Translations under genes and position numbers: made by a program | Shown: piece after piece, positions 3,643-43,697 of the stretch | How the letters are laid out: the number at the start of each line of letters is the position of its first letter | How positions within the stretch are numbered: position 1 is the stretch's first letter | Notes under the pieces: model-generated | What the model saw: the letters and a program-made list of their open reading frames with translations, nothing else | The model's database searches: none | What the model was told of the DNA's origin: nothing | From: an uncultured Actinomycetota bacterium | Lineage (GTDB): Bacteria > Actinomycetota > Thermoleophilia > RBG-16-64-13 | DNA length: 64,000 bases | Direction of reading: 5' to 3' | NCBI GenBank assembly: GCA_963790415.1 | Contig: CAWBOK010000008.1 | Location: forward strand, 7,125-71,124

Positions 3643-4914
3643 ATGGCCTTCTGCTTCGTCCACGCAGCCGATCTGCACCTGGACACGCCCTTCGAGGGGG
3701 TGGCCGAGACCTCCGGCGCGGTCGCGGAGAGGTTACGGGACGCGTCTCTGGAGGCTTTCGACCGACTGGTGCGCCTGGCGATCGATCGGCGGGCGGCGTT
3801 CGTGGTCCTGGCGGGCGATCTGTACGACGGGGCCGAGCGCGGGGTGCGCGCGCAACTGCGTTTCCTGCGCGGCCTGGGGGTTCTGTCGGCGGCCGGCATC
3901 CCGGTGTTCGTGGTGCACGGCAATCACGACCCGGTGGGAGGGTGGCCCGGGGTGCGTGAGTGGCCCCCGGGTGTGACGGTGTTCGGCAGCGACCAGGTGG
4001 GTGTGGTCCCGGTGACGCGCGACGGCGCCGTGCTGGCCCGGGTGTATGGCATCAGCTACGGCCACCGCGAGGTGACCGAGAACCTGGCTCTGCGTTTTCA
4101 CCGAGAAGAGGGGGCCGGCCTCCACATCGGCCTGCTGCACTGCACTGTGGGGGACGATCCGGCACACGGCCGCTACAGTCCCTGCTCCTTGGGTGATCTC
4201 CAGCGCGCGGGCATGGACTACTGGGCTCTCGGTCACGTCCACACGCGACAGGTGCTCCGCGAGGGCCGCCCGTGGGTGGTCTATCCGGGCAACACGCAGG
4301 GGCGCAGTCCCAAGCCCAGCGAGCGGGGCGCGAAGGGCGCCTGTGTGGTGCGCGTGGAAGGCGGCGAAGTGCGGGCGGTCGAGTTCGTGGCGCTCGACCG
4401 GGTACGGTTCGCAGCCTTCGAAGTGGACGTCGCGGGAGCGGCCGACCTGGGCGCCCTGCGGGCGCGGCTGGCAGCGGAAGTCGATGCCCTGACGGCCACC
4501 GGCGCCGGTCGCGACCTGGTGGTACGGTGCACGTTGCGAGGCAGAGGAGCGGTTCACGCCGACCTTCGCTGTCACGGGGGGGTCGATGAGCTCCTGCGCG
4601 ACCTGCGCGACGAGACCTACGGGGGTCGTGTCTGGTGGGAGGGCCTGCGCGACCTCACCCGGCCGGAGATCGATCTGGAGGCGGTGCGTGGCCGGGGGGA
4701 CTTCGCCGCCGAGCTGCTGCTCCGGGCGGACCGTCTGGCCGCCGACGGCGCCGAGTTGACGAGCTTCGTGCAGACGGCGCTGCGTGGGAGCGCCCCCTCG
4801 GGAGTCCACCGCCACCTGGCGTCTTCAGACCAGTCCGAGGCGAAGGCGGTGATCGAGGAGGCGCTCTTCCTGGCTCTCGATCTGCTTGGGGAGGAGTCGG
4901 ACGCGTGTACATAG
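3643..4914 (+). CDS. SbcD/Mre11-family (YhaO-like) metallophosphoesterase nuclease
   Basis: FVHAADLHLD, LAGDLYD, HGNHD, ALGHVH and YPGNTQGR motifs. ATG at 3643. Confidence 0.9.
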   Translation: MAFCFVHAADLHLDTPFEGVAETSGAVAERLRDASLEAFDRLVRLAIDRRAAFVVLAGDLYDGAERGVRAQLRFLRGLGVLSAAGIPVFVVHGNHDPVGGWPGVREWPPGVTVFGSDQVGVVPVTRDGAVLARVYGISYGHREVTENLALRFHREEGAGLHIGLLHCTVGDDPAHGRYSPCSLGDLQRAGMDYWALGHVHTRQVLREGRPWVVYPGNTQGRSPKPSERGAKGACVVRVEGGEVRAVEFVALDRVRFAAFEVDVAGAADLGALRARLAAEVDALTATGAGRDLVVRCTLRGRGAVHADLRCHGGVDELLRDLRDETYGGRVWWEGLRDLTRPEIDLEAVRGRGDFAAELLLRADRLAADGAELTSFVQTALRGSAPSGVHRHLASSDQSEAKAVIEEALFLALDLLGEESDACT

Positions 4915-7900
4915 AGGGGTGGGGTGTCGACGGGTTCGGGGTGTTCCACGACTACGAGGAACGCGATCTTCCCGCAGGGCTCTGTCTGTTTCTGGGCCCG
5001 AACGAGGCGGGAAAGAGTACTCTGCTGTCCTTCCTCCGCGGTGTCTTGTTCGGCTTTCCCGCGCGCAAAGCCGCTCAGCACTATCCGCCGCAACGCGGTG
5101 GTCGCCACGGGGGGAGGGTGTTCCTGGGGGGAGCGGGGGTTCCGATCGCGGTGGAGCGGGAAGTGGGCGTCAAGGCGCCGCGTATCGTCTATCCCGATGA
5201 TGTCGAGTCGGGCGACGTGGCCGTCCGTCGTCTCCTCGGCGGCGTAGACGACGGTCTCTTTCGCTCCGTCTTCGCCTTCGGCCTCGCCGAGTTGGCCGAC
5301 CTGGGTAGTCTTTCGTCGGCGGGGGTGAGCGAACGGATCTTCTCCGCGGGCATAGCCGGCGCGGGCCCTATTGCCGGGAGCGTCTCGAAGCGGCTCGACA
5401 AGGAGGCTTCGGAGCTCGTGCGTCCTCGCAGCGGTGGGCTGGGGAACGAACTACTGCGGCGTCTCGGCGAGGCGGAAGCGACCGCCCGCGACGCGGCGCG
5501 GCAGGCGGAGGGATACCCCCGGCTGGTGGATGAAGAGGCCGGACTCGGCACTGAGGTCGAACGGATCCGGCGTGCCGGGAACGACGCCGACCGCCGGGAG
5601 CGCCGCGCCAGGCTCCTGGGAGAAGCCTGGCCCGTCTATAGCGACCTGTGTTCGGCGCGCGAACAGCTACAGGCGCTCGAGGACACCCTCGGTGCGCCGG
5701 GAGCGCAGCAAGCCGCCGACGATGGCCTGCTTCTCCTCGAGCCGCGCGCAGCCGCGGCGGCCCATACGGTGGAGCTGCAGCGCGATCGCCTCGGTCGGCT
5801 GCCGGAGCTGCGCGTCCTCGCCGACGGTCGAGCGGTCGCTCTGCAGCGGCGGCTGGCCGATCTCGGGGCGGGTTGGGACACGGTGCGGGTCCGCGCTTTC
5901 GACGCCTCCCTGCCGCGGCAGCAAGAGGCCCGTTCCTGGTGGCGCGCGTGTGTGGACGCAGCAGCGGGCGTGGAGGAGGCGCGGCGCGTCCGGTCTGCCG
6001 CCGCCGTCGCCGCGGTCGCTCTCGACCACGAATTGCAGGAGGTTGAGAAGGAACTGGAGGCGATGCCCGCGACCGCCGCGGACGCGCTCGACTCCGCCGA
6101 GGACGCGATCCGTCGACTGCGTGCCGATCTGCCTTCGCTCGGTCTCATAGACAACGACCTGCGAGGCCGCCACGCGATGCTCGACGACCGCCGCAGGCAG
6201 GTGCGCGGCGCGGAGGCCGCCGTCGCCCCGGCTGCCCCGTGGGGAATGGTGGGCCTCGCGTGCCTGGCGGCGGCGATCCTACTGGCGGTCGGGGCGGTGT
6301 GGCTGGCGGTGACGTCGTCGGTAGCCGGCGGCCTGGCGGCCGCGGCCGGGGCGGTCGTGCTGGCGGCGATGGCCGCGGCGGTGCGGGGTTGGGCGGCACG
6401 AGATGGGCGGCGGCGGCAGGCCGCCGCCCGCGAGGCCGTCGACATGCAGGCCGACATCGACGCGATGGCGACCGAGATCGACGACCTTCAGGAACGTCGG
6501 CGATCGTGCGCCGCCGCGATCGCCGCGGCCGCCGCCGCCGTCGGTCTGAACGCGGAGCCGAGCTTCGCCGATGTGGAGTCCCGCGCCGCCCAGCTTGCCG
6601 CCCTGCGTCGGCAGACATTCGCCAGAGGGCAGGCGGAGCAACGTCGGGCCGGGTTGCTGGCCCGACTCGAGGGCGCCCGCGGCGACCTGGCTGGAGCCGA
6701 TGCCGCGGCCGTCGTCGCCGGGGCGGCTCACGCGACGGCTGAGGAGGGTTGGCGGGCCTTTCGGGAAGCGGCCGGTCTGCCCGCCGGCGTGGCGGCGGAT
6801 GATGCCGCCGACCTGCTGCGTGCCATTCAGGCGGCGCAGGACGCGCTCCGGGACGCCGAGGACGTCGGTCGTCAGCACGGCGAAGTCTTGCGTCTGGTCG
6901 ATGAGTGGGAGGCGGAGGCACGCGAGTTGCTTGCCGCGGCGGCTTCGGCGTCGAACGGAGTCGAGGGTGCGACAGCGGTCCCGGGCCCGGCCGCCGCGGC
7001 CGCCGCCGCCCCAGCACCGGGCGCCGTCGCATCGCCGGAAGCCTGGTCAGGGTCCAAGCTGGTGGCTCTGATCGAGCAATTGGCGGCGCGGTGCAGCCGC
7101 GCTCTCCAGGCCCGGGGCGAGGCCGAGGAAGGGCTACGCATGCTCGCCGAGCGCATCCGCGCTCGCGAGGATGACCTTGCCGTTCGCTTGGGGAGCGGCC
7201 CTGATGCCGCGGAGCTGCTCGCCGAACTGGAGACAGGCCGACTGGGAGACTGGGAACTCGAGAGCGAGCGCGCGGCCGCCGAAGCGGCCGCCGCGCGGGA
7301 TGAACTCGAGGCCGCTATCCGCGCCCACCACGACGCCGGGCAGCGGCGTCGCGCGCTCGAAGAGTCCGCCGACGTGGCCGCGCGGCAACTGACGGCGGAG
7401 GGGGTGCGCGCCGAACTGGGGCAGGTCGTGCGGCGCTGGGAGGTGATCGCGGCGGCTCGGGCGCTGATCGATCAGACTCTGGCCGACTACCGTCTCACTC
7501 GGCAGCCGCCGGTGCTCGCCGAGGCCTCCCGCTACCTGGCTCTGATCACCGCAGGCGCCTACGAACGCGTGATCGAGGCCGACGGCGAAGGCTTCCTCGT
7601 GCTCGACGACCGTGGAGGGGCCAAGTCGCCGGACCGGCTTAGCCGGGGCACTGTGGAGCAGCTGTACCTGTGTCTGCGACTGGGCCTGGTGGCGGAGTTC
7701 GCCCGCGGGGCTACGTCGGTGCCGGTTATCATGGACGACGTGCTTGTCGACTTCGACCCCCTCCGCGCCCGGGCCACCGCCGCCGTGTTGCTGGAGTTCG
7801 CGGCACAGCACCAGGTCCTCTTCTTCACCTGCCATCCGCACACGATCGATCTCTTCCATGACGTGGATCACACGATTCCCGTGCGCGTGCTGCCCCGGTC

Positions 7901-29926: not shown

Positions 29927-31648
29927 ATGCACCCCATGACGCGCTCCTTCCGACTCCAGGCCGTGCTGTTCGACTTTGACGGCACCCTCACAGAGCCAGG
30001 CGCCATCGGCTTCGAGGCGATCCGGCAGGCGATCGGCTGTCCGCCCGGCACTCCCATCTTGGAGTTCATCGCGGCGCAGGCGGACGAGGTCCGGCGGGCC
30101 GAGTTATACTTCGTTCTCGAAAGCTTCGAGCTCGAGGCCGCCGCCGTCTCGCGGCCGAATGTCGGAGCGGTACAAGCCGTGCGCGGACTGAAGTCGCGGG
30201 GCTTGCCCGTGGGCGTGATAAGTCGGAACGGCTTGGCCTCGATCGAGCGCGCCCTCGAGAACTTCGACGGGCTGGGACCGGACGACTTCGACGTCATCGT
30301 GTCGCACGATCTCCCGCTGGCTCCCAAGCCCGCGCCCGACACCGTGTTCTGGGCGGCCGAACGCCTCGGGGTCGACCCGTCCGGCTGTCTGGTGGTGGGC
30401 GATTTCGGCTTCGACGTGATGGCGGGGAAGGCCGCCGGGGCGGTGACGGTGTTGGTGCGCAACCACTCGTTTCCAGCCGAGGGTTTCGCGGGCGATTCTT
30501 TCACCGACTGGGCTCGGGACGCCGACTACGTGATAGACGATCTCACCCAGCTCGATGAGGTCGTGCGCCTTGGTCTGCCGCTGCCTACGGGTAAGTTCCC
30601 CAACGACCTGCTCGCCCGGTTCCTAGCCGACCTCATACCCGAAGATCCCGCGCTCTTCGTGCGCCCACGCGTGGGCGAGGACGTGGCGGTAGTGGATCTG
30701 GCCGCCGCAGGCCTGTCACGCGGCGCCGCAGGCATGCCCTTCCCCGGCGGACCGGCAGCGCCCGATCTCGGCCTCCTGGTACTCAAGTCCGATCCCATCA
30801 CCTTCGCCACGGACTCTCCGGGGCGGTATGCCGTACTGGTCAACGCCAACGACGTAGCCACTTCGGGGGCGACACCACGGTGGCTGCTGGCCACCTGTCT
30901 CTTCCCGGCGGACTCCACGCCATCGGAGATCGTGGCCACGCTCACCGAGCTGCGCGATGCCTGCTCCGAATCGGGGATCACCCTGTGTGGGGGGCATACG
31001 GAGATCACCGACGCGGTCAAGCATGCGGTAGTGGTGGGAGCGCTCGTGGGAACGGTCGCCCGTGACGGACTCATCGACAAGAGCGCCATGCGCGAAGGAG
31101 ACCGCGTGCTGCTGACCAAACGTCTAGCCGTGGAGGGGACGGCGCTGATCGCCCGGGAGCTGGGGCCGCGCCTTCTTGACCTGGGCATGAGCGCGGAAGA
31201 GATCGAGCGCTGCCGGGGGTTCCTCTCTCTGGTCAGCATCCTGCCGGAGGCGCGCGTGGCCGCGACTTCGGGGGTCGTCGCGGGCATGCACGACGTCACC
31301 GAGGGGGGCCTGGCCACGGCGCTGGAGGAGTTCGGCTTGGCGGGCGGGCATCGTATCCGCGCGCACCTCGATCGCATCCCGGTGTTCCCGGAGACCCGGC
31401 GGGTGTGCGCGCTGTTGGGGATAGACCCGCTGGGTCTGATCGGATCGGGCAGCCTGCTGATCGCCTGCCGTCCCGCCGGCGCCGCCACCCTGATCGCTCA
31501 GTTGACCGCCGAAGGCATCGAAGCCACCGACATCGGGGAGGTGTTGGAACCGGCCGTCCCCGGGGATCCCGTCGTGGAGGGCATGCGCGCGGGCCTGCCG
31601 GCGGCGTGGCCGCGCTTCGCCGTCGACGAAGTCGCCCGGCTGTTCTAG
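29927..31648 (+). CDS. HAD-family phosphatase fused to a PurM-like (AIR synthase/ThiL/HypE superfamily) domain
   Basis: HAD motifs FDFDGTL, SRN, KPAPD, VGDFGFD. PurM-like motifs GEDVAV, KSDPIT, NANDVATSGA, GGHTE, MHDVTEGG. Confidence 0.85.
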   Translation: MHPMTRSFRLQAVLFDFDGTLTEPGAIGFEAIRQAIGCPPGTPILEFIAAQADEVRRAELYFVLESFELEAAAVSRPNVGAVQAVRGLKSRGLPVGVISRNGLASIERALENFDGLGPDDFDVIVSHDLPLAPKPAPDTVFWAAERLGVDPSGCLVVGDFGFDVMAGKAAGAVTVLVRNHSFPAEGFAGDSFTDWARDADYVIDDLTQLDEVVRLGLPLPTGKFPNDLLARFLADLIPEDPALFVRPRVGEDVAVVDLAAAGLSRGAAGMPFPGGPAAPDLGLLVLKSDPITFATDSPGRYAVLVNANDVATSGATPRWLLATCLFPADSTPSEIVATLTELRDACSESGITLCGGHTEITDAVKHAVVVGALVGTVARDGLIDKSAMREGDRVLLTKRLAVEGTALIARELGPRLLDLGMSAEEIERCRGFLSLVSILPEARVAATSGVVAGMHDVTEGGLATALEEFGLAGGHRIRAHLDRIPVFPETRRVCALLGIDPLGLIGSGSLLIACRPAGAATLIAQLTAEGIEATDIGEVLEPAVPGDPVVEGMRAGLPAAWPRFAVDEVARLF

Positions 31649-31704
31649 CCGCTGTGGCGACTTCGCGACGCGATCCGCCTGGGGGCGATGACGCCAGGGA
31701 GTCC

Positions 31705-34700
31705 ATGAACGTGCTGTCCGATTTCTCCGTACCTGTGCGGACCTGGTTCGCCGACACGTTCGGCGACTCCACACCCCCGCAGGCCCTGGGATGGCCGCCC
31801 ATCCAGCGGGGCGAGCACACATTGATCCTCGCGCCCACAGGGTCGGGCAAGACCCTGACGGCGTTCCTGTGGGGTATCGACGACCTCTTCCGCGAGTTAA
31901 CGGGCACGGCAGCGTCGGATGTCGCCATCGCCGCGTCCGGTGCCCCGGTGGCCCCGCCGGATGCCCCAGTTCCCGCGCCCGGCGCGAAAGCGCCTGGGGT
32001 TCCTCCCTCCGCGGCGAAGTCCTCGGTGGTCGCCCCGCCCGGCGTCCGCCTGGTCTATATCTCACCACTCAAAGCCTTGAACAACGACATCCAGCGAAAT
32101 CTGCGCATCCCCCTTGCCGGCGTGCGGGCTGCCGCCGCGGCGGCAGGACTCGTGTGGCCGGAGATACGCGTCGCCGTCCGCTCCGGCGACACGCCGCAAC
32201 GTGAGCGCCGAGCGCTGCTGACGCGACCACCGCACATCCTCATCACCACGCCCGAGTCTCTCTATCTGTTGCTGACGAGTCCTCGGGCACGGGAGATCTT
32301 CGCGCCGGTGCGCACGGTGATCGTCGACGAGATCCACACGCTGGCGGGGAACAAGCGGGGGGTCCACTTGTCGGTGAGCCTCGAGCGGCTGCAGAACCTG
32401 GTTGCGAGACCGATCCAGCGGATCGGGCTGTCGGCGACCATCCGTCCGTTGGAGGAAGTGGCCCGGTTCCTGGGGGGAGCGGAGTGGGCGTCGGGCGTCG
32501 ACGGCAACGCCGACACTGGTGACGGCGCGGTCCCCCCCGGCGAGGGTACCGGCGACGGCCCGCGTCGCGGCGGCCTCGTGGCACGTCCGGTCACCATCGT
32601 CGACGCGGGCCACCAGAAACCGCTCGACCTGCGGGTGGAGACCCTCACCGAAGACTACCGTGGACTGCCCGGGGGCTCGGTCTGGCCTGTGGTGATCCCG
32701 CGGGTGCTCGACCTGATCCGGCAGCACCGCACCACCCTGGTCTTCACCAACAACCGTCGGCTGGCCGAGCGCACGGCCGACCGGTTGAACGAGCAGGCCG
32801 CGGCTGAATCCCGGGGAGAGGCCTCGGGGCTCATCGTTGATGGCGTCGTCAAAGGCGTGGGTTTCACAGCGGCCGGCACGGGGGTGACCCGGGGCGAGTT
32901 GGCCGCCGCCGCCGGGGCCTTGACTGCCGGCGGGCCGCTCGCCCTGCCCCCCTTCCGCGCCCACCACGGGAGCATGGCCCGCGACGCGCGCCTGGAGATG
33001 GAACGCGATCTCAAGGCCGGCACGACCCGAGCCTTGGTGGGCACGTCGTCGCTGGAGCTGGGCATCGACATCGGAACGGTCGACCTCGTGGTGCAGCTGC
33101 AATCCCCGTCCTCGGTGGCGCAGGGCCTGCAGCGCGTGGGCCGCTCGGGCCATCTGGTCGGCCAGACCAGCAAGGGCCGCATCTTCCCCACCCATCGGGA
33201 GGATCTGGTGCAGGCGGCCGTCGTGGCGCGTGGGATGCTCGCGGGTGACGTGGAGGCCGTCGTGACTCCCCTCAACCCGCTCGACGTGCTGGCCCAGCAG
33301 GTCGTGGCGGCGGTGGCCGTGGAAGATTGGCGGGTGGACGATCTCTTCCGCCTCGTGCGCCGGGCCTACGCGTATCGCGACCTGACGCCGCGTGCGTTCC
33401 GAGCGGTGCTCGACATGGTCTCGGGCCGGTTCCCCAGCTCGGCCCACCGGGAGTTGCGCCCGCGACTGGCGTGGGACCGGGTGAACGATCGGTTGACCGC
33501 CTTGCCCGGTTCGCGCCTACTGGCGCTGACGAACGGGGGCACCATCCCCGACAGGGGCCTGTTCGGCGCCTACCTACCCGACGGAAAGACCCGCATCGGC
33601 GAACTCGACGAGGAGTTCGTGTTCGAGAGCCGGGCGGGCGACACGTTCATCCTGGGCTCCCAGGTCTGGCGCATCCTCGAGATCACCGACGACCGCGTGC
33701 TGGTGGGGGAAGCCCCGGGAGCCCTGCCCCGCATGCCGTTCTGGCACGGCGATCTGCCCTGGCGGCCCCACGAGCTGGGGAAGCGGGTGGGGGAGTTCCG
33801 GCGGACTTTGGCCGAGCGGCTGGAGCGGATGGCGTCGGAACTGTCTGCCGCGCGCGAAGCCGGCGACGGGTCGCCCGATCCCGAGGCGGGTGTCGACGTA
33901 CCTGTCGCCGGCGACACGCCGCCCGTGCAGGCAGGCGACCCATGCCCGCCGACCGTTCGGCCGACCAGTCTCAGCCTGCTGCTCGACGAGGAGTGGGACC
34001 ATCCCCGGTTACGGGAAGAGCTGTCGTGGCTCGCCCGCACGTGCGCCCTCGACGGGCCGTCCGGCAGGCAGATCCTCCGCCACATGGCGACGCAACTCGA
34101 CCGGGGCGGGGAGGTGGCCACCGACCGCACCGTCGTGGTGGAGGCGTTCGACGACGCCATCGGCGATCCGCGCATGGTGGTGCACTCCGTCTTCGGCGGC
34201 CGGGTGAACGGCGCGTGGGGGATGGTCCTGGCGGGAGCCCTGCGCGAACGGACCGGCGTGGAGGTGGAGATGCAGGCCGGCGACGACGGCATCCTCATGC
34301 GCTTCCCCGACTCCGACGCCGAATTCCCGCTCGACCTGATCGCGGCTATCGGGCCGGCGGAGGCACGGCGCCGTCTGCTGGCCGAGTTGCCCGATTCCGC
34401 GGTGTTTGGGGCTCAGTTCCGCATGAACGCCGCCCGGGCCCTGCTGCTTCCCGGCCTGCGGGGCGGAAAGCGCACGCCATTTTGGCTGCAGCGGCTGCGC
34501 GCCCGCGATCTGCTGCAGGGTGGTTCGGGGCTACCCCGACTTTCCGCTCCTGGCGGAGACCTACCGCGACTGCCTGGAAGACGTGATGGACGTTCCCGCT
34601 CTGGAAGACGTGCTGGCAGCCGTCGAGAGGGGCGAGATCCGAGTGGTGACGGTGGAGTCGCTGGTGCCGTCGCCGGTGGCCCAGAGCCTGTTGCGGAAGT

Positions 34701-36919
34701 TCGCGGACGTCCACCTCTACGACGCCGACACTCCCAAGGCGGAGCGCAACCTGCAGGCGATGGCCGTCAACCCCGAGCTGCTGCAGGACCTGTTGCGCGA
34801 CGTGCGCCTGGACGAGGTACTGAAACCTGAGGCTCTGGTGGAGGTGGAAGCGCGGTTGCAGCGCACCGCCCCGGATGGACGGGCCCGCACGGTGGAGGAA
34901 CTCGCGCTGTTGCTGGAGGAGCTGGGTGATCTCTCCACGGCCGAGGTGGTCGCCCGATGCGTCGTCGCTCCCGGTGCATGGTTGGCGGAACTCGAGGCAC
35001 AGGGGCGGATCGCCAGGATCGAGATACCAACGTCGTTGGGGATGGAGGAACGCTGGGTGTGGGGCGAGTGGAGGGAGGACTACCGGCAGGCTCTGGGCGT
35101 CGGCGCCGCGCCGGGCGCCGTGGGCCACACCCTGGCCGACCACGACGCACCCCTTGCCCGCGACGCGATGCGACGCATCCTCGAGCGGCACCTGGCGCGT
35201 TCGGGGCCGGTGACCGTGGAGCAACTCGGTCGGCGTTACGGATTCCCCGCCGAAGCGCTTCAGGATGAGCTTCACGAGATGGTCGGAACGCGCCGACTGG
35301 CCGAAGGCCGGTTCTCGCCGAAGACGGAGACTGCTCCCCCCGCCGGCGACGCCACGCCGGCCCCCGTGGCGCCGGTCGAGCCGCCCTACACTGAGTATGT
35401 CGACGTCCACGTTCTCGAGCAGCTCCACCGCCACACGCTGGGCGCGTTGCGCCGCGAAGTGCGGTCGGTCGATCTCGCCACTTACGCGGACTTCCTCGTG
35501 GATTGGCAGCGTCTGTCGGCGGATAGGCGCTTGGACGGCGAGGGAGGCCTGCGCCAGGTCCTCGCGCAGCTGCGGTCCGCGCCGGTCGTGGGAGCCGTGT
35601 GGGACAGGGACGTGCTGCCCCTCCGGCTGTGGGACTTCGACCCCGCCCTTCTCGAGTCGCTCTGTCGGAGTGGCGACCTGGTGTGGATCGTCTCCGGCGA
35701 GAAAGACCCTCGCCGGGCTCGGGTGCGGTTCCTCTTCCGTGGCGAGGGGGCGGCGTTCCTGGGGGCCGGGGCGGGCGAGGATTCCGGCCTGACCCCACCG
35801 GCTGTGGCGGTCCACGACCTGCTGCGCACGGAGGGCGCGCTGTTCACCGCCGATCTTCGCGGCGGGCTCGCACTCGATTCGGACGCCCTGGAATCCGCCC
35901 TCGTGGAACTCGTGATGGCCGGCCAGGTGACCAACGACAGCCTTGGTGTACTGCGGCGCCTCGCGGACTGGGCTCCGGTTGCGCCCCGGACGAGGCGCGG
36001 GGCCGCGTCCAGCCTGGAGGCCGATCTCGCCCGGCGCCTCGAAGGGCGCGGGCTCGGCGCCGGCACCACCCGGCGGCTCAGCGGCCGCTTCTCCGGGTCG
36101 TCGTCGTATCCAGGTGTGCGCCCGCACGGCCTGCAACGGCCGGCGCGCGGCGTCCAGCGCGCGGCTTCTCGGCGCGTGCGCGACCGACTGGCCCTGCGCG
36201 GCCCTGCTCCCGGCGGGGCCGGGCCGGCCGATCTACCCACCGACGGCCGCTGGAGTCTGGTCGACCGTCTGGGGATCATGGGTCCTCCGCTACCGCCGGA
36301 CGAGCGCTCGCTGCGACAGGCGCGTCAGCTGTTGTTACGGCATGGAGTGGTCACTCGAGCCTGTCTCGACCGCGAGGAGGGACCGTGGGAGTGGACCGCC
36401 ATCTACCGTCAGCTGCTGCGCATGGAGCTGCGGGCCGAAGTCCGGCGGGGCTACTTCGTACGGGGGCTTCCCGGGGTGCAGTTCGCGCTTCCGGAGGCGG
36501 TCGAACGCCTGCGGGCGGCGAGCGGCTCGGGCGGGGGAGAGGCAAGGCGCGCCGACGGCGAGGGGTCCGTCGTGGTCATGAACGCCTGCGACCCGGCGAA
36601 TGTCTGGGGGTCGGCTTCGCTGGGAATCGATGCCGCACAGTTTGTGCGGGTGCCTACTACCTGGCTGGTCCAGCACCGTGGCCTTCCCGTGCTCGTCGCC
36701 GAGGACACCGCCGCCCGCATCAGAGTCGCGCCGGGCGCCGATGTGGGCCTTGTTCGCGACGCCCTCGCGGCGCTCGTGGAGCATCTGAGTGGGTTTACGA
36801 ACCGGATGACCGTCGAGAGCTGGGACGGCGTCCGCGTGTTGGACAGCAGCGGCGCGGCACTGCTCGATTCGCTGGGGTTCTACCCGGACCACCCCTGCAT
36901 GACCCGGGAGCGTGGGTGA
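31705..36919 (+). CDS. lhr: Lhr-family DEAD/DEAH helicase, long form, frameshift near 34520
   Basis: APTGSGKT, ISPLKAL, TTPESL, DEIH, HHGS, SSLELGIDIG, QRVGRSGH. C-terminal half has RRGYFVRGLPGVQFA. Confidence 0.9.
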
Positions 36920-38057: not shown

Positions 38058-38282
38058 ACCGACCCTCCCCCTTCGCCGTTGTCGACCCGTTCAGGGTTCA
38101 CATTCTGACTCTGATTCTATGACGGAAGCGTTCGGAAGGTAAATGCGCCCGCGGTCCGCCAAAGCGCCCCCAGCCGCTTCATGGTGACCGTCTCGGCCGG
38201 GACCATCCGGCCCCGTATCGCATCTGCCGCCCCGGCGACGTACTATGGTGGAGCTGGCGATGACACACGCGAGGAGGCATCG

Positions 38283-38753
38283 ATGGGGGCGGACACCTGG
38301 CAGGACGCGAAAGACAAGGCGATGGCCGGTTTTCTCGACAACGGGCCGGCGCATCTCAACTGTGCGCAGGCGGCGGTCGCTTTCGCGGCGTTCGGCTTGG
38401 GTCTCGATCCTCGGTTGGTGCTCGCGGCCCGCTACATGGGCGGCGGGTCGGTGGGAATGGGTCATCTGTGCGGCGCCCTCTCAGGAGCGATCCTGGCGCC
38501 CGGGCTGCGCGATTTCTTCGCTGGAGCGGAGTGGCCCGACCGGGCCGCGCCCGACAAACCGGCTCTGCAGCAGCTCATCCGGGATTTCGAGGCCGAGTTC
38601 GGCACGGCCACCTGCCTCGGGCTCACCGGCCACGACATCTCTTCCAAAGAGGGCTACCGAGTTTTCAAGCATGACCCGATCGCCAAGCGGTGCGCCGACT
38701 ACGTCGCCTGGGTCTGCGATCGCCTGGAACCCATCCTGAGAGGGGTCGACTGA
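38283..38753 (+). CDS. C-GCAxxG-C-C family redox protein
   Basis: NCAQA, LCGALSG, ATCLGLTG and RCADYV cysteine pattern. RBS GAGGAGG. Confidence 0.85.
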   Translation: MGADTWQDAKDKAMAGFLDNGPAHLNCAQAAVAFAAFGLGLDPRLVLAARYMGGGSVGMGHLCGALSGAILAPGLRDFFAGAEWPDRAAPDKPALQQLIRDFEAEFGTATCLGLTGHDISSKEGYRVFKHDPIAKRCADYVAWVCDRLEPILRGVD

Positions 38754-38760
38754 CCGTTCC

Positions 38761-40080
38761 ATGGAACGAAAGCGCTACACGATCCACCTCTCGGGTCCGT
38801 TGTCCGGCTGCAATCCGCGGCAGCGGCGTCTCTGGCGCGCCGAGTTCAAGAGACTCTGCCCCGACATGCTGACCATCGACCCCAGCGAGTGGGGCGACGA
38901 GTGGGACTTCTCCCGCGACCTGCGGGCCGTCGCCGCGTGTGATGTGGTGGTGGCCAACATGTGGAAGGAGTCCATCGGCACTACGATCGAGATCATGCAG
39001 GCCCGAGCGTGGGGCAGACCGGTGGTGGTCATCGACCCCAACCATCTCGATCACGCCATCCTCCGCGGTCTGGTCGCCCCCGAGAAGCCTGTCCACTCCG
39101 TGAAAGAAGCGGCCGCACGGGTGCGCGTCTTGGTGCGGGAGTTGGGCGGTTTCAGCGTCATGAAGAAGGACGGTTCGTCGGAATCCTTCGACCGCGACAA
39201 GTTGATGCGTGGTCTCAAGCTGGCGTGTATCGAAGCCGGCGTCGACGACCTGGAGTTTCCCAACCAGGTCCTCGGGCCGGTCGTGGCTTCTCTCCGCAAG
39301 GAGGCCGCGAGCAGGGTGGTCAGCACCGGCGATATCAAGAATGTTGTGTTCGCCCAGATCGACGGCCTGGCGGTGGAGACCGAGGGCCGCAAAGCCGTCG
39401 GGGACTTTGCCGTCCGCGTGCGGCGGGCGTGGGAGAAGCAGGAGAGCCGCAAGCAGGGGGACGCCTACCTCGATGTGCTCCACGACGACAACGACGACCT
39501 CCGTGCCCGGGTGAGAGACCTGGGGATCCTGGTAGCTCAGCTGCACCAGGAGATCGCCGAACGCGATGCCCGACTCACCGAACTCGATCGCCGCCCGGAA
39601 GCCCCTGTCCCGCCGCCTCCGACGACTCTGTTCGAAGCGTTGCGTCGCGTCGAGCGCGACTACGCCGACGCGATCGCCGTCCATCCGCGGGCACTGAAGA
39701 GCGCGAAGGATTGCCCCTTTCAAGATGTGGACAGAGCCAACACTGCGCTTCGGCTCTTGGCACGATATGCACGCGAACGTCTGGAAGCCACCTCCTCTCC
39801 CGGCTGTCGTCCACCGGGAGCGAAAGAGTGGTTCAGGCAGCGCAGGGAGGAGGCCCCCTGGCTCGGCTATGCACCGCACGAGAGCAAGACCAGCATGAGT
39901 ATGTGGGCCGTCGAGCGCACGGTCGACTTCGCGGGGGAGACCCTGCTCATCGAGCAGCATCTTCGCATCGGAAAGGGTAGCCCCTCCGACCTGCTCCGCG
40001 TCCACTTCGCCATCCACCAGGCGACAGGGCAGGTGGTCATCGGCCACTGCGGGCGGCATCTGACGAACACCAAGTCCTGA
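38761..40080 (+). CDS. Multidomain protein: NDT/nucleotide N-glycosidase-like + ATP cone + coiled coil + putative RelE-like C-terminal domain
   Basis: IHLSGP...RDLRAVAACDVVVA...SIGTTIE..A...GRPVVV; VMKKDGSSESFDRDKL; heptad segment; HLRIG...LLRVHF...VVIGHCGRHL. Confidence 0.7.
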   Translation: MERKRYTIHLSGPLSGCNPRQRRLWRAEFKRLCPDMLTIDPSEWGDEWDFSRDLRAVAACDVVVANMWKESIGTTIEIMQARAWGRPVVVIDPNHLDHAILRGLVAPEKPVHSVKEAAARVRVLVRELGGFSVMKKDGSSESFDRDKLMRGLKLACIEAGVDDLEFPNQVLGPVVASLRKEAASRVVSTGDIKNVVFAQIDGLAVETEGRKAVGDFAVRVRRAWEKQESRKQGDAYLDVLHDDNDDLRARVRDLGILVAQLHQEIAERDARLTELDRRPEAPVPPPPTTLFEALRRVERDYADAIAVHPRALKSAKDCPFQDVDRANTALRLLARYARERLEATSSPGCRPPGAKEWFRQRREEAPWLGYAPHESKTSMSMWAVERTVDFAGETLLIEQHLRIGKGSPSDLLRVHFAIHQATGQVVIGHCGRHLTNTKS

Positions 40081-40125
40081 AGGCGGGGGCGGCTCCGCGC
40101 GGCGCTGCAGGGTCGCAGGGGCGGG

Positions 40126-40251
40126 CTATCGCCAGAGCGATTCGTCGATGTGTTCAAACTCGGCGGTCGCCCTCTCGAACTCAGCGATGTCGTCGGCGGT
40201 CCAGGTGCCGACCAGCGCGTCGAGGTCGCTGAAGATGGGGTGGTTTGCCAT
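40126..40251 (-). CDS. Short antitoxin-like peptide or remnant (41 aa)
   Basis: MANHPIFSDLDALVGTWTADDIAEFERATAEFEHIDESLWR after a GAGGAG RBS. Resembles the C-terminal region of VapB-like antitoxins. No toxin gene follows. Confidence 0.45.
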   Translation of the reverse strand: MANHPIFSDLDALVGTWTADDIAEFERATAEFEHIDESLWR

Positions 40252-40419: not shown

Positions 40420-40645
40420 CCGCCGGTCCGGTGATGCAGGAGCCTCTCGAGGCGCTGCGACCGCCGCCGGTGGAGAATAGGGAATCGGGTGAGAATCCCG
40501 AGCGGTCCCGCCGCTGTGATCGGGGAGTGAACTCGCATGAGGCCACTGTCCCACCACCATCGGCCCGTAGTGGGCAGTTGGCAAGGGGGATGGGAAGGCG
40601 CGGGGGAGCGGTGATCCGAGAGTCAGCAGACCTGCCCGGCGGCTG
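40420..40645 (+). ncRNA. Cobalamin (AdoCbl-class) riboswitch
   Basis: Conserved elements in order: GGTG...AATAGGGAATCGGGTGAGAATCCCGAGCGGTCCCGCCGCTGTGA...GCCACTG...GGGAAGGC...GAGTCAGCAGACCTGCC (B12 box). Confidence 0.93.
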
Positions 40646-40689
40646 GTAGGCCTCCCGTGTGAAGGGGGCCCTGCTGAGAGACGATGGCA

Positions 40690-40727
40690 AAGTCTCCGGC
40701 CTACTTTAGGCTGGGGGCTTTTCTTTT
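40690..40727 (+). terminator. Riboswitch expression-platform intrinsic terminator
   Basis: AAGTCTCCGGCCTA-CTT-TAGGCTGGGGGCTT stem (with G-U pairs) followed by TTCTTTT, 25 bp before the first gene. Confidence 0.8.
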
Positions 40728-40752
40728 GCCCCCTCAACCCGAAAGGGGGCAG

Positions 40753-41646
40753 ATGTGGCGACACAGAGACGCAGTGCAGGCTGAATCCCGACTTGAACGC
40801 GCGGTTCCTGTGGCGGCGCGGGAACGCACACGGACACGCGCCCGGGGCCGGAGGCGCGCCGGAGGGCATGCGACTCCGGCTCTCGTGGCGATCGCGGTAC
40901 TTGTCGCGTTGACCGTGCTGGTGGAGCTCGTGGTCCAGGCGGCGCACGTCGCCCCGTTCGTGTTCCCTCCGCCGTCCATGGTGCTGCGCGAGTTGGCCGA
41001 CGGACCTGGGCTGTTCGCCCGGCACGCCATGTACACGCTGTACGAAGCGGGAGCCGGGCTTGTGGTCGCGGCGGCGGCGGCGCTGATCTTCGCCGCCGCC
41101 GCTCTTCACTCCCGCTTTCTCGACCGGGTGCTGACGCCATTCGTGGTGGTGTCTCAGACCATCCCGGTGATCGCGCTGGCGCCTCTGCTGGTTCTCTGGA
41201 TCGGCTACGGAGCTCTGCCGCGGGTGATCGTCTGCGCCCTCATCGCCTTCTTCCCGATGGCGGTGATGACTCTGCAGGGGTTCCGCTCGACCGATCCGCA
41301 GTTGCTCACACTACTCCGCTCCGTGAATGCCTCGCCATGGGATGTCTTTTGGCGGGTGCGCGTGCCGGGAGCGGCGCCCTTCTTGGCCGCCGCGTTCCGC
41401 ACCGGGGTCACGTTGAGCCTGGTCGGAGCCGTGGTGGCCGAGTGGACCGGCACCGACCGGGGTCTCGGCTACCTGGTGCTGAGCGCGAACTCGCGCATGG
41501 CCACGGCACAGGCGTTCGCCGCCGTTCTCGTGATCACCCTGCTCGGCCTCGTCGCGTACGGTGGCGCCGTGCTGCTGGAACGGAAGATCTGCTGGTGGAA
41601 CTCCGCGGCCCCCGTCGGCCGCCCTTACGACAAGAAAGAAGGATGA
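40753..41646 (+). CDS. NitT/TauC/SsuC (ThiX-like) ABC permease
   Basis: FPPPS, QTIPVIALAPLL, FFP, EAA-loop region, AVVAEW...GLGYL. Confidence 0.9.
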   Translation: MWRHRDAVQAESRLERAVPVAARERTRTRARGRRRAGGHATPALVAIAVLVALTVLVELVVQAAHVAPFVFPPPSMVLRELADGPGLFARHAMYTLYEAGAGLVVAAAAALIFAAAALHSRFLDRVLTPFVVVSQTIPVIALAPLLVLWIGYGALPRVIVCALIAFFPMAVMTLQGFRSTDPQLLTLLRSVNASPWDVFWRVRVPGAAPFLAAAFRTGVTLSLVGAVVAEWTGTDRGLGYLVLSANSRMATAQAFAAVLVITLLGLVAYGGAVLLERKICWWNSAAPVGRPYDKKEG

Positions 41647-42750
41647 ACATGATGCTCCGCAAGAAACACACGCATGCCGCCCTATCGGCGACTCTGTTGG
41701 CGGTCTTCCTCCTGCTGTGGGCGACGGCCTGCGGCACCTCCGCCACGACGACGACCGCACCGGCGCCATCTTCCACGGTGGCTTCGGACACCGCGACCAC
41801 CGCGGGTTCCAGCTCAGCCGCCAAAGTGGGGCCGCCGGAGGTGGCCAAGGTCGACCTGATCATGGATTGGGTGCCCTGGGTGCTCGATATCCCGATCGAC
41901 GTGGCGCAGGAGAAGGGTTTCTACACCGACGCCGGCCTGGAAGTGACCCAGACTCTGCCGGCGGGGCCCACCGACGTGGTCAAGTTCGTCTCCACCGGCA
42001 AGAGCCAGTTCGGCCTGTACTATGCCCCGGACATGCTCATGGGTGTGGCCGAGGGCGCGTCGCTCGTGTCCGTCGCGGCCCTCATGGGCCACGCGCCGGT
42101 GGGGCTGGCCGTGGCGCCTGGTGTTGACGTCACGGAGCCAAAGGACTTGGTGGGCAAGACCGTGGCCGTGCCGCTGATCCCTTCGGTGCGGGCTTCATAC
42201 GACACCATGCTCAAGGTTGGAGGCGTCGATCCGGAGTCGGTGACCCTCGTCGATCCCGGATACACCTTGGTTGCTCCGCTGCTCGCGGGGACCTACCACG
42301 CGGTGGCGTTCACTGAGTTCGGTGAGCTTGTGGAAGCGGAAGCAATCGCGGGCGAGAAGTTGACCTATCTCGACTTCCGCGACTGGGGCACCCCCGACTA
42401 TGCGTTCATGAATGTGATCACCGCCTCCGACTTCGCTCAGAAGAATCCGAACACCGTGCGCGTGTTCGTGGAGGCGACCATGGCCGGTCTCGCCTACGCG
42501 GCGGCGAACCCCGAGGAGGCTGCGGACATCTACGTGGCCCGCCATCCGGAGCTGAAGAAGGATCTCCTTTTGGCGCAGTGGCGCGCGGCCCTGCCCTCGA
42601 TGGCCACGGCCTACGGTCGACAAACCGGCCGGGTGGCAGGACGTGGAGGCGTGGACGGCCCTGAACACATGGATGGTGGAGGCGGGTCTGCTGAAGCAGC
42701 CCGTCGAACTAGGCGGATCGGTGAGCAACGACTATCTGGCGGCGCCGTGA
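41643..42750 (+). CDS. NMT1/THI5 (ThiY-like) ABC substrate-binding lipoprotein, frameshift near 42615
   Basis: Lipobox ATAC, MDWVPW, VAQEKGFYTDAGLEV, NPNTVRVFVEATMAGLAYAAANPEEAA. True C-terminus GWQDVEAW...VSNDYL in the next frame. Confidence 0.85.
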
Positions 42751-42810
42751 TGGGAGCGGCGGCTTCGTGCGCCCGCCCGGCGCCGGGCGGGCCGGAGAGG
42801 GTGCGGCGGC

Positions 42811-43697
42811 GTGGCCCAGGAGGGCCACGCCGCCGCCTCGGTGACGGTCCGCGGTCTGCGGGCGGGTTATGACGGTCGACAGGGGCACGTGTCCGTGCTC
42901 GCCGACCTGGAACTCGCCCTCGCGCCGGGCGAGTGTCTCGTGGTGGTGGGGGAGAGCGGCTGTGGAAAGAGTACGCTCCTGCACCTGTTGGCCGGACTCA
43001 TGGCGCCCGAAGCGGGTGAGGTACAGGTCGACGGACGTGCGGTGGCGGCAGCCGACTTCGCCGGAGACGGGCTGCCCGGGTGCTCATCCGGGCATGCCGC
43101 CTACATGTTCCAGCGCGATCTGCTGCTGCCGTGGAAATCGGTGCTGGCGAACACGGTGTTCGCCGCCGAGGTGGCCCGCGGAGCGCGGACACGGCGGGCG
43201 TGGTCGGCGTTCTCGCCCGCGGGGTGTCGGTCGCCCAGAGCGGCTGGAGCTGGAGGAGCGGGCACGGACGATCCTGGGCGAGTTCGGGCTGTCGGCGAGC
43301 CCTCGATGCCCTTCCTCGCGAACTCTCCGGGGGGATGCGGCAGCGGGTGGCGCTGGCCAGAACGCTGGTCTTGGGTCGTGGCCTCGTCCTGCTAGACGAG
43401 CCGTTCGGCAGCCTGGATGCCTTCACCCGCGCGGAATTGCAGGGCTGGCTACTCGACGTGATGGAGGCCCATCCGGCCACCTGGGTGTTGGTCACGCACG
43501 ACGTGCGTGAGGCGGTGCTATTGGGTGACCGCGTCGCGGTGCTGGCGGGCCGCCCGGCGCGTATGGAGGGTTGGGTGCCGGTGCCCCTCGACCGAGCCGC
43601 CCGGCGCGGACTCGCGGCGCCCGAGGCCGACGGACACGTCATGACCCCGTTCACGAGGCGTGTGCACGGTCTGCTGGCGCAGGGGAGGATGTCGTGA
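42811..43697 (+). CDS. NitT/TauB/SsuB (ThiZ-like) ABC ATPase, frameshifted; start may be 42750
   Basis: GESGCGKST, YMFQRDLLLPW, ELSGGMRQRVALAR, LLDEPFGSLD, VTHD. Confidence 0.88.

Follow-up and report, generated by a model that had tools for sequence, protein, structure and literature searches.

The closest described relatives of the C-terminal half of the protein analysed here, which is encoded at positions 38761..40080 (+ strand) of a 64,000-nucleotide stretch from an uncultured Actinomycetota bacterium (contig CAWBOK010000008.1; the whole stretch is called the window below), are the defence proteins HEC-07 and NsnC. HEC-07 (Hma-embedded candidate 07; PADLOC PDLC04158-04161) is a single-gene anti-phage candidate, and the accessible part of its source describes a single protein with an AdoMetDC-like domain, then a thioredoxin-like domain and then a RelE-like (HP0892-like) domain that has a conserved C-terminal His (10.1101/2024.01.29.577857). 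The same part of that source reports that seven of the nine HEC candidates reduced plaquing and that the failures were HEC-01 and HEC-09, which by elimination places HEC-07 among the active candidates (10.1101/2024.01.29.577857). The C-terminus of the Menshen protein NsnC is assigned, in the accessible part of its own source, to the BECR superfamily, where it is closest to YafQ and has an H-R-H triad (PMC12065111; Li, Tan, Basu, Corbett, Zhang). ATP-cones, in turn, have an established allosteric role with ATP and dATP, and the accessible parts of two papers describe them only in housekeeping nucleotide control (PMC11226230, PMC9110341). In the literature searched we found neither a toxin or defence protein that was said to contain an ATP-cone nor the NDT-like plus ATP-cone front end described below. 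The window gene places a nucleoside 2'-deoxyribosyltransferase (NDT)-like domain and an ATP-cone in front of a HEC-07/NsnC-type effector module. The effector half is already known, and it is only this front end that is new in that context.

How the C-terminal half relates to HEC-07 and NsnC

The gene starts with an ATG at 38761, ends with a stop codon at 40078-40080 and encodes 439 amino acids (439 codons plus the stop) in the ORF list and translation, and its own genome holds one copy. Of the 24 runs returned in a look for expression, none was listed as holding RNA. The host genome is G+C-rich with many shadow open reading frames (ORFs), and an antisense ORF of 464 amino acids (38665-40059, - strand) overlaps the gene. 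We take the plus frame as the coding frame because its codon GC3 is 0.82 versus a GC2 of 0.46, because only seven in-frame codons lie upstream of the ATG (the open frame is 446 amino acids), because scoring of 8,000 candidates yielded 26 homologous proteins at E <= 1e-3, which are mostly 428-448 amino acids long and collinear from residue 1, and because of the Pfam and PADLOC matches given below. Source annotations name these homologues "hypothetical", "ATP cone domain", "NrdR family" or "nucleoside 2-deoxyribosyltransferase". An earlier sequence-only reading of the window had placed its protein at exactly these coordinates. Every motif that it quoted (GTTIE, VMKKDGSSESFDRDKL, HLRIG, LRVHF and VVIGHCGRHL) is present in the translation, and its division of the protein into an NDT-like domain, an ATP-cone, a coiled coil and a C-terminal toxin-like domain is correct.

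Residues 228-437 match positions 351-551 of the 553-position PADLOC HEC-07 profile (E 1.3e-15), and residues 290-435 match positions 185-311 of the 316-position NsnC profile (E 1.5e-8; the NsnC models were matched at E 1.5e-8, 5.5e-6 and 3.5e-3). These matches make the defence or toxin role that had been proposed for the protein plausible. The part shared with HEC-07 comprises the end of the coiled coil, a helical sub-domain, a RelE-like sheet and the C-terminal His, both proteins are encoded by single genes, and the nearest neighbours of the module in a profile search are near full-length HEC-07 matches. However, the window protein covers only ~36% of the HEC-07 profile, its N-terminal half is NDT-like domain plus ATP-cone so that no full-length HEC-07 match is found, and the gene lies outside any Hma system. 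The claim that the architecture matched no described system is thus correct for the NDT-like plus ATP-cone pair, which is new here, and incorrect for the C-terminal half, which is the effector end of HEC-07 and NsnC.

The effector module itself spans residues 283-439 (39607..40077, + strand) and consists of a helical sub-domain and a RelE/YafQ/YoeB-like sheet of the HEC-07/NsnC (PB-BECR1) type. We aligned 16 C-terminal modules and found the H-R-H triad of Menshen NsnC kept as H400, R413 and H436. Specifically, His400 (codon at 39958..39960, +), the first His of the putative triad, and Arg413 in the LRVHF motif (39997..39999, +) are invariant in 16/16 sequences. His436 in the GRHL motif (40066..40068, +) lies three residues from the C-terminus, and positions 435-436 hold one Arg and one His in all 16 sequences, in the order R-H in 12 and H-R in four, so that a His stands at 435 or 436 throughout. 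Unlike Menshen NsnC, the window protein lacks the inactive-PIN N-domain, and no NsnA (ParB-DUF262) or NsnB (ABC ATPase-DUF3696) was present in the window or in the 16 loci that encode full-length relatives (type A, see below).

When the module was folded alone from the 16 sequences the model reached a pLDDT of 90.8 and a pTM of 0.87. Comparison of this model with 48,161 chains by VIA-align, which is independent of Foldseek, placed YafQ first (4q2u_B, Z 6.6, rmsd 3.1, 86 residues aligned), followed by YoeB (7v6w_F, Z 6.4), HP0892 (4ls4_A, 6.2), RelE (2kc8, 6.1), two further RelE chains (6.0 and 5.9) and another YoeB (5.8). The top seven rows are therefore all RelE-type toxins, with 81-87 residues aligned to toxin chains of 84-95 residues, and nine chains reached Z >= 5. 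The top Foldseek rows, all above E 1e-3, were likewise RelE, ParE, HigB and YoeB toxins, and the C-terminal profile gave chance-level rows only (E >= 0.34) when compared with PDB chain sequences. A Z value of this size is by itself no proof of kinship with RelE. The kinship rests on a consistent list of one toxin family covering nearly whole chains, together with the HEC-07 and NsnC matches, and these two lines of evidence support a RelE assignment that had originally been made by eye. Note that the module differs from type II RelE, YafQ, YoeB, HigB and ParE toxins by being about twice their size, with an extra helical sub-domain and an insert, and by being fused to sensor domains rather than paired with an antitoxin gene. 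A cognate antitoxin next to the gene was not found, as none of the 16 type-A loci has a conserved small neighbour.

When 1.84 billion representatives were searched with a profile of the module, 3,759 clusters passed E <= 1e-3, of which 1,423 also passed E <= 1e-10, and among the 150 hits listed the module nearly always ended within a few residues of the C-terminus of proteins that ranged from 144 to 1,007 amino acids. All 35 module-bearing proteins sampled match the HEC-07 and/or NsnC models, with those of ~510-545 amino acids matching HEC-07 almost end to end. Other N-termini found before the module are PIN (P0147), SEC-C/HEAT (P0136, P0139) and HEC-07-type. The PIN protein is made up of PIN, coiled coil and module and ends in a near-identical IGHVGRHLTNTK tail. 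An apparent further architecture, in which an ATP-cone precedes the module without an NDT-like domain (P0040, P0050, P0076, P0087), was discarded, as these sequences look like 5' truncated calls: P0076 lacks a Met, P0087 begins within the NDT-like domain, and P0040 and P0050 begin in the last helix of that domain.

The NDT-like domain, the ATP-cone and the long helix

Residues 1-129 (38761..39147, + strand) form a domain of the NDT/DNPH1 fold, as judged from Foldseek, sub-cutoff Pfam matches and residue counts over 44 members. The full-length AlphaFold model (21-sequence alignment, mean pLDDT 86.5) yielded 14 PDB matches in Foldseek at E <= 1e-3, and among the matches listed a cyanobacterial nucleoside 2'-deoxyribosyltransferase came first, followed by DNPH1/Rcl, BcmB and MilB, all with a probability of 1.00 and a target TM of 0.58-0.71. 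By this comparison the domain has the Rossmann-like NDT fold, as had been claimed. The fold match is clear, and the sequence matches are only below cutoff: PF05014 was detected at E 1.2e-3 with 19.4 bits against a cutoff of 28.8, and further sub-cutoff matches were to PF18306 (SLOG cluster 4, E 1.4e-3) and PF14359 (DUF4406) in Pfam and to PHROG NDT families. When PF05014 was scanned against 20 relatives, two scored above the cutoff (L039 at 31.6 and L052 at 34.3) and a third (L045) equalled it at 28.8.

We measured conservation in an alignment of the first 240 residues of 44 members, made up of 16 of type A (the window and 15 loci) and 28 others, namely 27 of type B, which match only the N-terminal part of the protein, and L016. 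Members that were off contig, short or partial (L019, L022, L040, L047, L051, L053, L054) were excluded. The family signature is (Y/H)L(A/S)GP..GCN, D61, N66-M-W68-(K/R)-E70-S71-.-G73 and D92-P-N94. Invariant residues are G12, P13, N66, W68, K/R69, S71 (44/44), G73 and N94, with D61 (43/44), D92 (42/44) and E70 (41/44) near-invariant, and the motif NMW(K/R)ES.G is conserved across the family. Position 9 is Tyr in 40 members and His in four, the latter being the clade of the window (4/16 type A). The domain thus resembles NDT and DNPH1 (Rcl) in its fold, in its predicted dimer with a conserved loop at the two-fold interface, in an acidic residue at the D53 position (39/44, with D53 present in the window protein) and in Ser71 (44/44). 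It differs from them at the position of the Glu nucleophile, in having a motif of its own, N-M-W-(K/R)-E-S-x-G, and in Pfam scores that for the window protein lie under the cutoff.

The Glu of GTTIE, E77, had been named as the catalytic residue. We equate E77 with the classical Glu nucleophile from motif spacing, the Pfam alignment range and the active sites of DNPH1 and NDT as we take them to be, rather than from a structure superposition; PDB titles among the Foldseek matches name Y, D and E mutants of enzymes of this type. The residue is present in the window protein and yet is no feature of the family. Among the 16 type-A members the position is E in three, D in three and G in ten, and among the 28 others it is G in 27 and S in one, which makes it acidic in only 6/44, with Gly in 37 and Ser in one. 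Judged from these alignments, the family is a distinct NDT-like clade whose putative pocket is strongly conserved independently of the classical Glu. Since E77 is so rarely acidic and the other motif is invariant, the domain is more likely a ligand sensor than a conserved effector, and the base cleavage that had been proposed as its output is unlikely as a conserved function. Catalysis in the window protein itself may occur, as its clade keeps E77 and D53, but His replaces Tyr there. The overall interpretation given by the sequence-only reading is therefore partly supported: it survives in its architecture and its RelE call, and not in its catalytic Glu or in its view of the architecture as wholly unknown, and the sensing of phage-induced (d)NTP shifts stays at the level of a proposal.

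The ATP-cone occupies residues 132-205 (39154..39375, + strand), an assignment based on PF03477, the NrdR model, conserved residues and the secondary structure of the model. PF03477 matches residues 132-200 at E 2.1e-7 with 31.8 bits against a curated cutoff of 25.8, and the model has the expected beta-hairpin (132-142, strands 132-134 and 140-142) followed by a helical bundle (helices 145-159, 166-184 and 189-205), which together uphold the claim of an ATP-cone. The NrdR model TIGR00244 (NCBIfam) matches only residues 131-196 of the protein, with 20.2 bits against a cutoff of 124.65. The K-K/R-D-G start is kept as K135, K/R136 and G138 in 16/16 type-A members, and among all aligned members F143 is present in 44/44 and K147 in 42/44. 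The domain is thus like those of the large subunits of ribonucleotide reductase (RNR) and of NrdR in its significant Pfam match, its K-K/R-D-G start and its conserved Phe and Lys. The protein as a whole is unlike them in having neither the RNR catalytic barrel nor the NrdR zinc ribbon, and in having an RNase-like toxin module as output domain. From the established role of ATP-cones we would expect ATP or dATP as its ligand.

The front end is joined to the module by one unbroken helix (DSSP) that extends over residues 211-275 (39391..39585, + strand) of the full-length model. We co-folded two copies of the protein from the family alignment in three runs with three controls. The homodimer model gave a median ipSAE of 0.62 versus 0.00 for the best control. 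In the calibration, 20 of the 30 proteins with a solved homo-pair structure attain this mark, as does one of the 23 whose structure is a single chain. At least 75% of the contacts were common to the three runs and the partner pLDDT was at least 79. In these models the long helices pair as a parallel coiled coil in register (contacts 247-247, 254-254 and 261-261, with a listed range of 230 to 276), as the claim of a coiled coil had anticipated. The NDT-like domains meet around a two-fold axis (70-72, 72-75 and 75-75; residues 67-84 and 96-104) that has the invariant loop 67-76 on its predicted interface, and ATP-cone helix 150-164 forms the third part of the contact. At the level of these models, then, the protein is predicted to be a coiled-coil homodimer.

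Relatives, proposed mechanism and alternative readings

We compared 116 candidate stretches, with each species represented by one genome; relatives are encoded in 54 of them and are of two kinds. Type-A relatives are full-length and occur in Gaiellales, Thermoleophilia, other Actinomycetota and two Acidobacteriota (L006, L017). Type-B relatives, found at ~30 loci in Acidobacteriota, Longimicrobiales, Gammaproteobacteria, Planctomycetota and Armatimonadota, encode proteins of ~360-410 amino acids that match only residues ~1-230. Of 20 type-B-kind ORFs scanned, all matched an NDT-type family and 17 an ATP-cone (nine above cutoff). Their C-terminal ~110 residues (L018-L050, for example L033 10751-11131) follow the pattern KSH.TIWG...EGK.FD.G.KG..Q.FQV with invariant His, Trp, Gly, Gln and Phe. 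This domain had no Pfam, PADLOC, PDB-sequence or atlas match, and the idea that it is a divergent RelE module was rejected (hhalign probability 0.3%). In one PADLOC scan, HEC-07/NsnC matches were found in 0/16 type-B or other proteins versus 3/7 type-A proteins. The 40 proteins recovered with residues 1-230 as query all belong to type A or type B, and none showed a fusion to a known effector domain. Domains are thus swapped at both ends, with the NDT-like plus ATP-cone pair occurring in front of an unrelated C-terminus and the module occurring behind other N-termini. Most matches on viral contigs (L088-L090 6001-6648; L064; L077; L133) cover the NDT-like domain, residues ~1-100, and a few that reach residues ~140-170 may include the ATP-cone.

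Within the order of the window, 20/61 genomes have a match at E <= 1e-10, as do 12/33 high-quality genomes and 12/19 genera, and occurrence within genera is patchy (6/16, 1/6 and 2/9 genomes, for example). Fifteen of the 20 matches span at least residues 7-416, and the other five are pieces or broken copies: G007 is split over two frames, G002 consists of two fragments, one with a TAG, only an N-terminal stub is left in each of G045 and G051, and G053 retains residues 183-420 only. The gene therefore behaves like an accessory gene, being stand-alone, patchy and sometimes broken. Broken copies also occur at other loci that we compared. In type B, L028 has a TAG in the ATP-cone (~10418), L031 has a TAA in the NDT-like domain (~10253) and L049 is frameshifted with multiple stops, and these three were left out of the type-B scans and the 44-member alignment. 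The C-terminus of L008 (2569-3036), which is the same copy as G007, is frameshifted, and L008 was left out of alignment A2 and the 44-member alignment.

We give about an even chance to the reading that the protein is a stand-alone, autoinhibited, nucleotide-gated RNase toxin or abortive-infection/conflict protein. What the sequences show are the domain identities, the conserved residues, the stand-alone and patchy occurrence of the gene and the kinship that links its C-terminal half with HEC-07 and NsnC. We infer the binding of nucleotides, the way in which the switch turns, transmission along the coiled coil, RNase activity and what it cuts, toxicity and an anti-phage role. In the mechanism that we propose, two chains would pair via the parallel coiled coil (residues ~230-276) and the two-fold NDT-like interface. 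The ATP-cone of each chain would bind ATP or dATP and, by analogy with RNR and NrdR, the quaternary arrangement would shift with the ligand. The NDT-like pocket probably binds a second nucleotide-type ligand rather than serving as a conserved catalyst, because its invariant residues are kept and the classical Glu nucleophile is mostly absent. A change in ligand occupancy would travel along the coiled coil to the two RelE/YafQ-like modules (H400, R413, H436), which would switch from an autoinhibited state to active RNase, so that RNA is cut, translation stops and the outcome is growth arrest or aborted infection.

Many anti-phage systems attack the nucleotide pool, and to our knowledge only a few read it. 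For ATP versus dATP the textbook reader is the ATP-cone, and its fusion to a HEC-07/NsnC effector module offers a compact case in which the state of the nucleotide pool could lead to cleavage of RNA and so to arrest of growth. The fusion further suggests that the variable N-terminal halves of HEC-07-type proteins would be exchangeable sensors that share one output, the coiled coil with the RNase. A more specific version, which we regard as speculative and somewhat unlikely, is that the ATP-cone has been recruited as an immune sensor of the dATP/ATP balance in a dimer that reads a second nucleotide through its degenerate NDT-like pocket, that remodelling of the nucleotide pool by phage alters ATP-cone occupancy and, by way of the coiled coil, unleashes the RelE-like RNase, and that the same sensor pair drives at least one other C-terminal effector in Acidobacteriota, Gemmatimonadota, Gammaproteobacteria and Planctomycetota. 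If this were true there would be a family of nucleotide-pool-gated single-protein defence systems.

Several observations weigh against a toxin or conflict role. The structural match of the module is moderate, with a best Z of 6.6 and none >= 8, Foldseek gave no match for the module model at E <= 1e-3, and no Pfam RelE, ParE, YoeB or HigB family was detected on the window protein at E <= 1. The dimer model may partly recall solved NDT dimers. Around the gene the window holds mostly housekeeping genes (RecQ, Lhr, SLH wall proteins, and an ABC transporter and CobT in a cobalamin-riboswitch operon), the sole conflict-type trace near it being a decayed antitoxin, and the PADLOC models that neighbours match are mostly generic (DpdF for RecQ, DpdJ for Lhr and mad3 for ABC ATPases). 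Full-length relatives were absent from phage genomes (0 matches), from plasmids, where 10 records match only the C-terminal 14-16%, and from viral contigs, where only the N-domain is matched. A first alternative is a physiological, non-immune regulator, in which a nucleotide-gated RNase would throttle translation upon a change in ATP/dATP or energy charge (starvation, replication stress or dormancy), in effect a toxin-antitoxin module fused into one chain. The occurrence of matches in 20/61 genomes and 12/19 genera of the order, about a third of its genomes, is compatible with such a regulator, as are the ordinary genes around the window copy, the nine of 16 type-A loci that have only metabolic or transport neighbours, the absence of the full-length protein from the phage and plasmid collections, and the description of ATP-cones only in housekeeping nucleotide control in the accessible parts of the sources (PMC11226230, PMC9110341). 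However, occurrence is patchy within genera (6/16, 1/6 and 2/9), 5/20 matches are broken or partial, the nearest relatives of the effector module are defence proteins, the same N-terminal pair carries different C-terminal domains, and toxin-antitoxin genes lie near the gene at several loci. The neighbourhood of the homologues, which had been put forward as a check on a defence role, is itself divided, since genes of toxin-antitoxin, defence or mobile-element type lie no more than three genes away at seven of the 16 type-A loci, a count tabulated without a matched control and carrying no claim of enrichment. We consider the physiological regulator unlikely.

Two other alternatives put the NDT-like domain at the centre. 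NDT-like effectors occur in some retron systems, and, in line with the sequence-only reading, the domain could itself be the effector and act on nucleotides or NAD as an N-glycosidase that the ATP-cone switches on, with the C-terminal module as a second effector or a mere regulator. The fold matches to the N-glycosidases DNPH1, BcmB and MilB, the acidic nucleophile position in the window protein and its close relatives (E in three and D in three of 16 type A) and the presence of D53 would fit this. Gly (37) or Ser (1) at that position in the 44 members, His in place of the Tyr equivalent in the window clade (4/16), a PF05014 score under the cutoff in the window protein and the absence of any PADLOC retron or other NDT-effector model at E <= 1 on that protein argue against it, and we hold it to be decidedly improbable. 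The protein might also be a nucleotide-salvage or metabolic enzyme under ATP-cone allostery, with the C-terminal domain as a harmless RNA- or protein-binding appendage. An NDT fold and an ATP-cone are a natural pairing for nucleotide metabolism, and some homologues are named 'nucleoside 2-deoxyribosyltransferase' or 'NrdR family', but no nrd or salvage gene is conserved beside the gene in 16 type-A or 19 type-B loci, the classical catalytic Glu is mostly absent, and the C-terminal module keeps its putative RNase residues without exception. This makes a metabolic enzyme the most remote of the alternatives, and highly improbable.

Surroundings of the gene

No neighbour of the gene is conserved across the type-A loci. 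The seven that have conflict-type genes nearby carry a FitA-like antitoxin and a PIN toxin (L001); HicB-like, FitA-PIN and HNH genes (L006); a DUF6036 nucleotidyltransferase, a Schlafen-type helicase (PDC-S41, 2e-132) and an XRE regulator (L008); PIN, FitA-like, Phd, HD, XRE and MNT/PDC-S09 genes (L010); a DruE-like helicase of 1,763 amino acids (L012); AAA_16 and an SF1 helicase (L013); and an IrrE-type peptidase (L017). For type B we scanned 74 of 106 called ORFs (the two nearest on each side, with L025 skipped as the target was not called there), and found Fic, an AbiEii-like AAA_21 with a C5 methylase, NERD with AAA_5, PIN, Phd, WYL and a transposase. The type-B loci are mixed, as their neighbours also include aconitase and histidinol dehydrogenase. 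In L005 (8714-9877, -) and L012 (8343-9389, +) the homologue has a gene for an ADP-ribosylglycohydrolase beside it or close by, and a rhodanese-domain gene lies near it in L004, L005 and L007; the proximity of these genes may be local synteny within one clade.

In the window itself, the upstream flank is a C_GCAxxG_C_C protein (38181-38753, +), putatively redox-active, whose gene ends 7 nt before the ATG. An operon or functional link with this gene was discarded, as a tblastn search of 54 loci finds the protein only in the closest relative, L001. One database protein (P0013), from a near relative only, reads as a fusion of the C_GCAxxG_C_C protein and the target. Further upstream lie SLH/DUF346 wall proteins on the opposite strand and an Lhr-type helicase (31405-36919, +). 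The latter is split into overlapping ORFs in different frames (31405-34830 and 34520-36919), with the switch near 34520 inside the DEAD-associated domain, and reflects either a frameshift in the gene or a mistake in the assembly.

On the downstream side, 46 bp 3' of the target gene, there is a FitA-like (ribbon-helix-helix) antitoxin remnant of 41 codons (40126-40251, -). In L001 and L010 a full FitA-like antitoxin is followed by a 135-residue PIN toxin (L001 region 4426-5220). L001 is 86.5% identical to the window over 38207-40089, and its PIN gene (4426-4899, between target and antitoxin) and the 5' half of its antitoxin have no counterpart in the window; the remnant is therefore a decayed vapBC-like pair. 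A link to the genes beyond it was likewise rejected, as a cobalamin riboswitch (40440-40653, 98.8 bits) opens a separate operon there, with an ABC transporter and CobT. Over the regions compared (window 40440-43400 and L001 5221-7056) this riboswitch is kept, and the genes between it and CobT differ, being an ABC transporter (permease, binding protein and ATPase) in the window and a ThiC-family radical-SAM gene in L001. ThiC paralogues beside cobT make the benzimidazole lower ligand, and the difference between the two operons may be a swap of synthesis for uptake.

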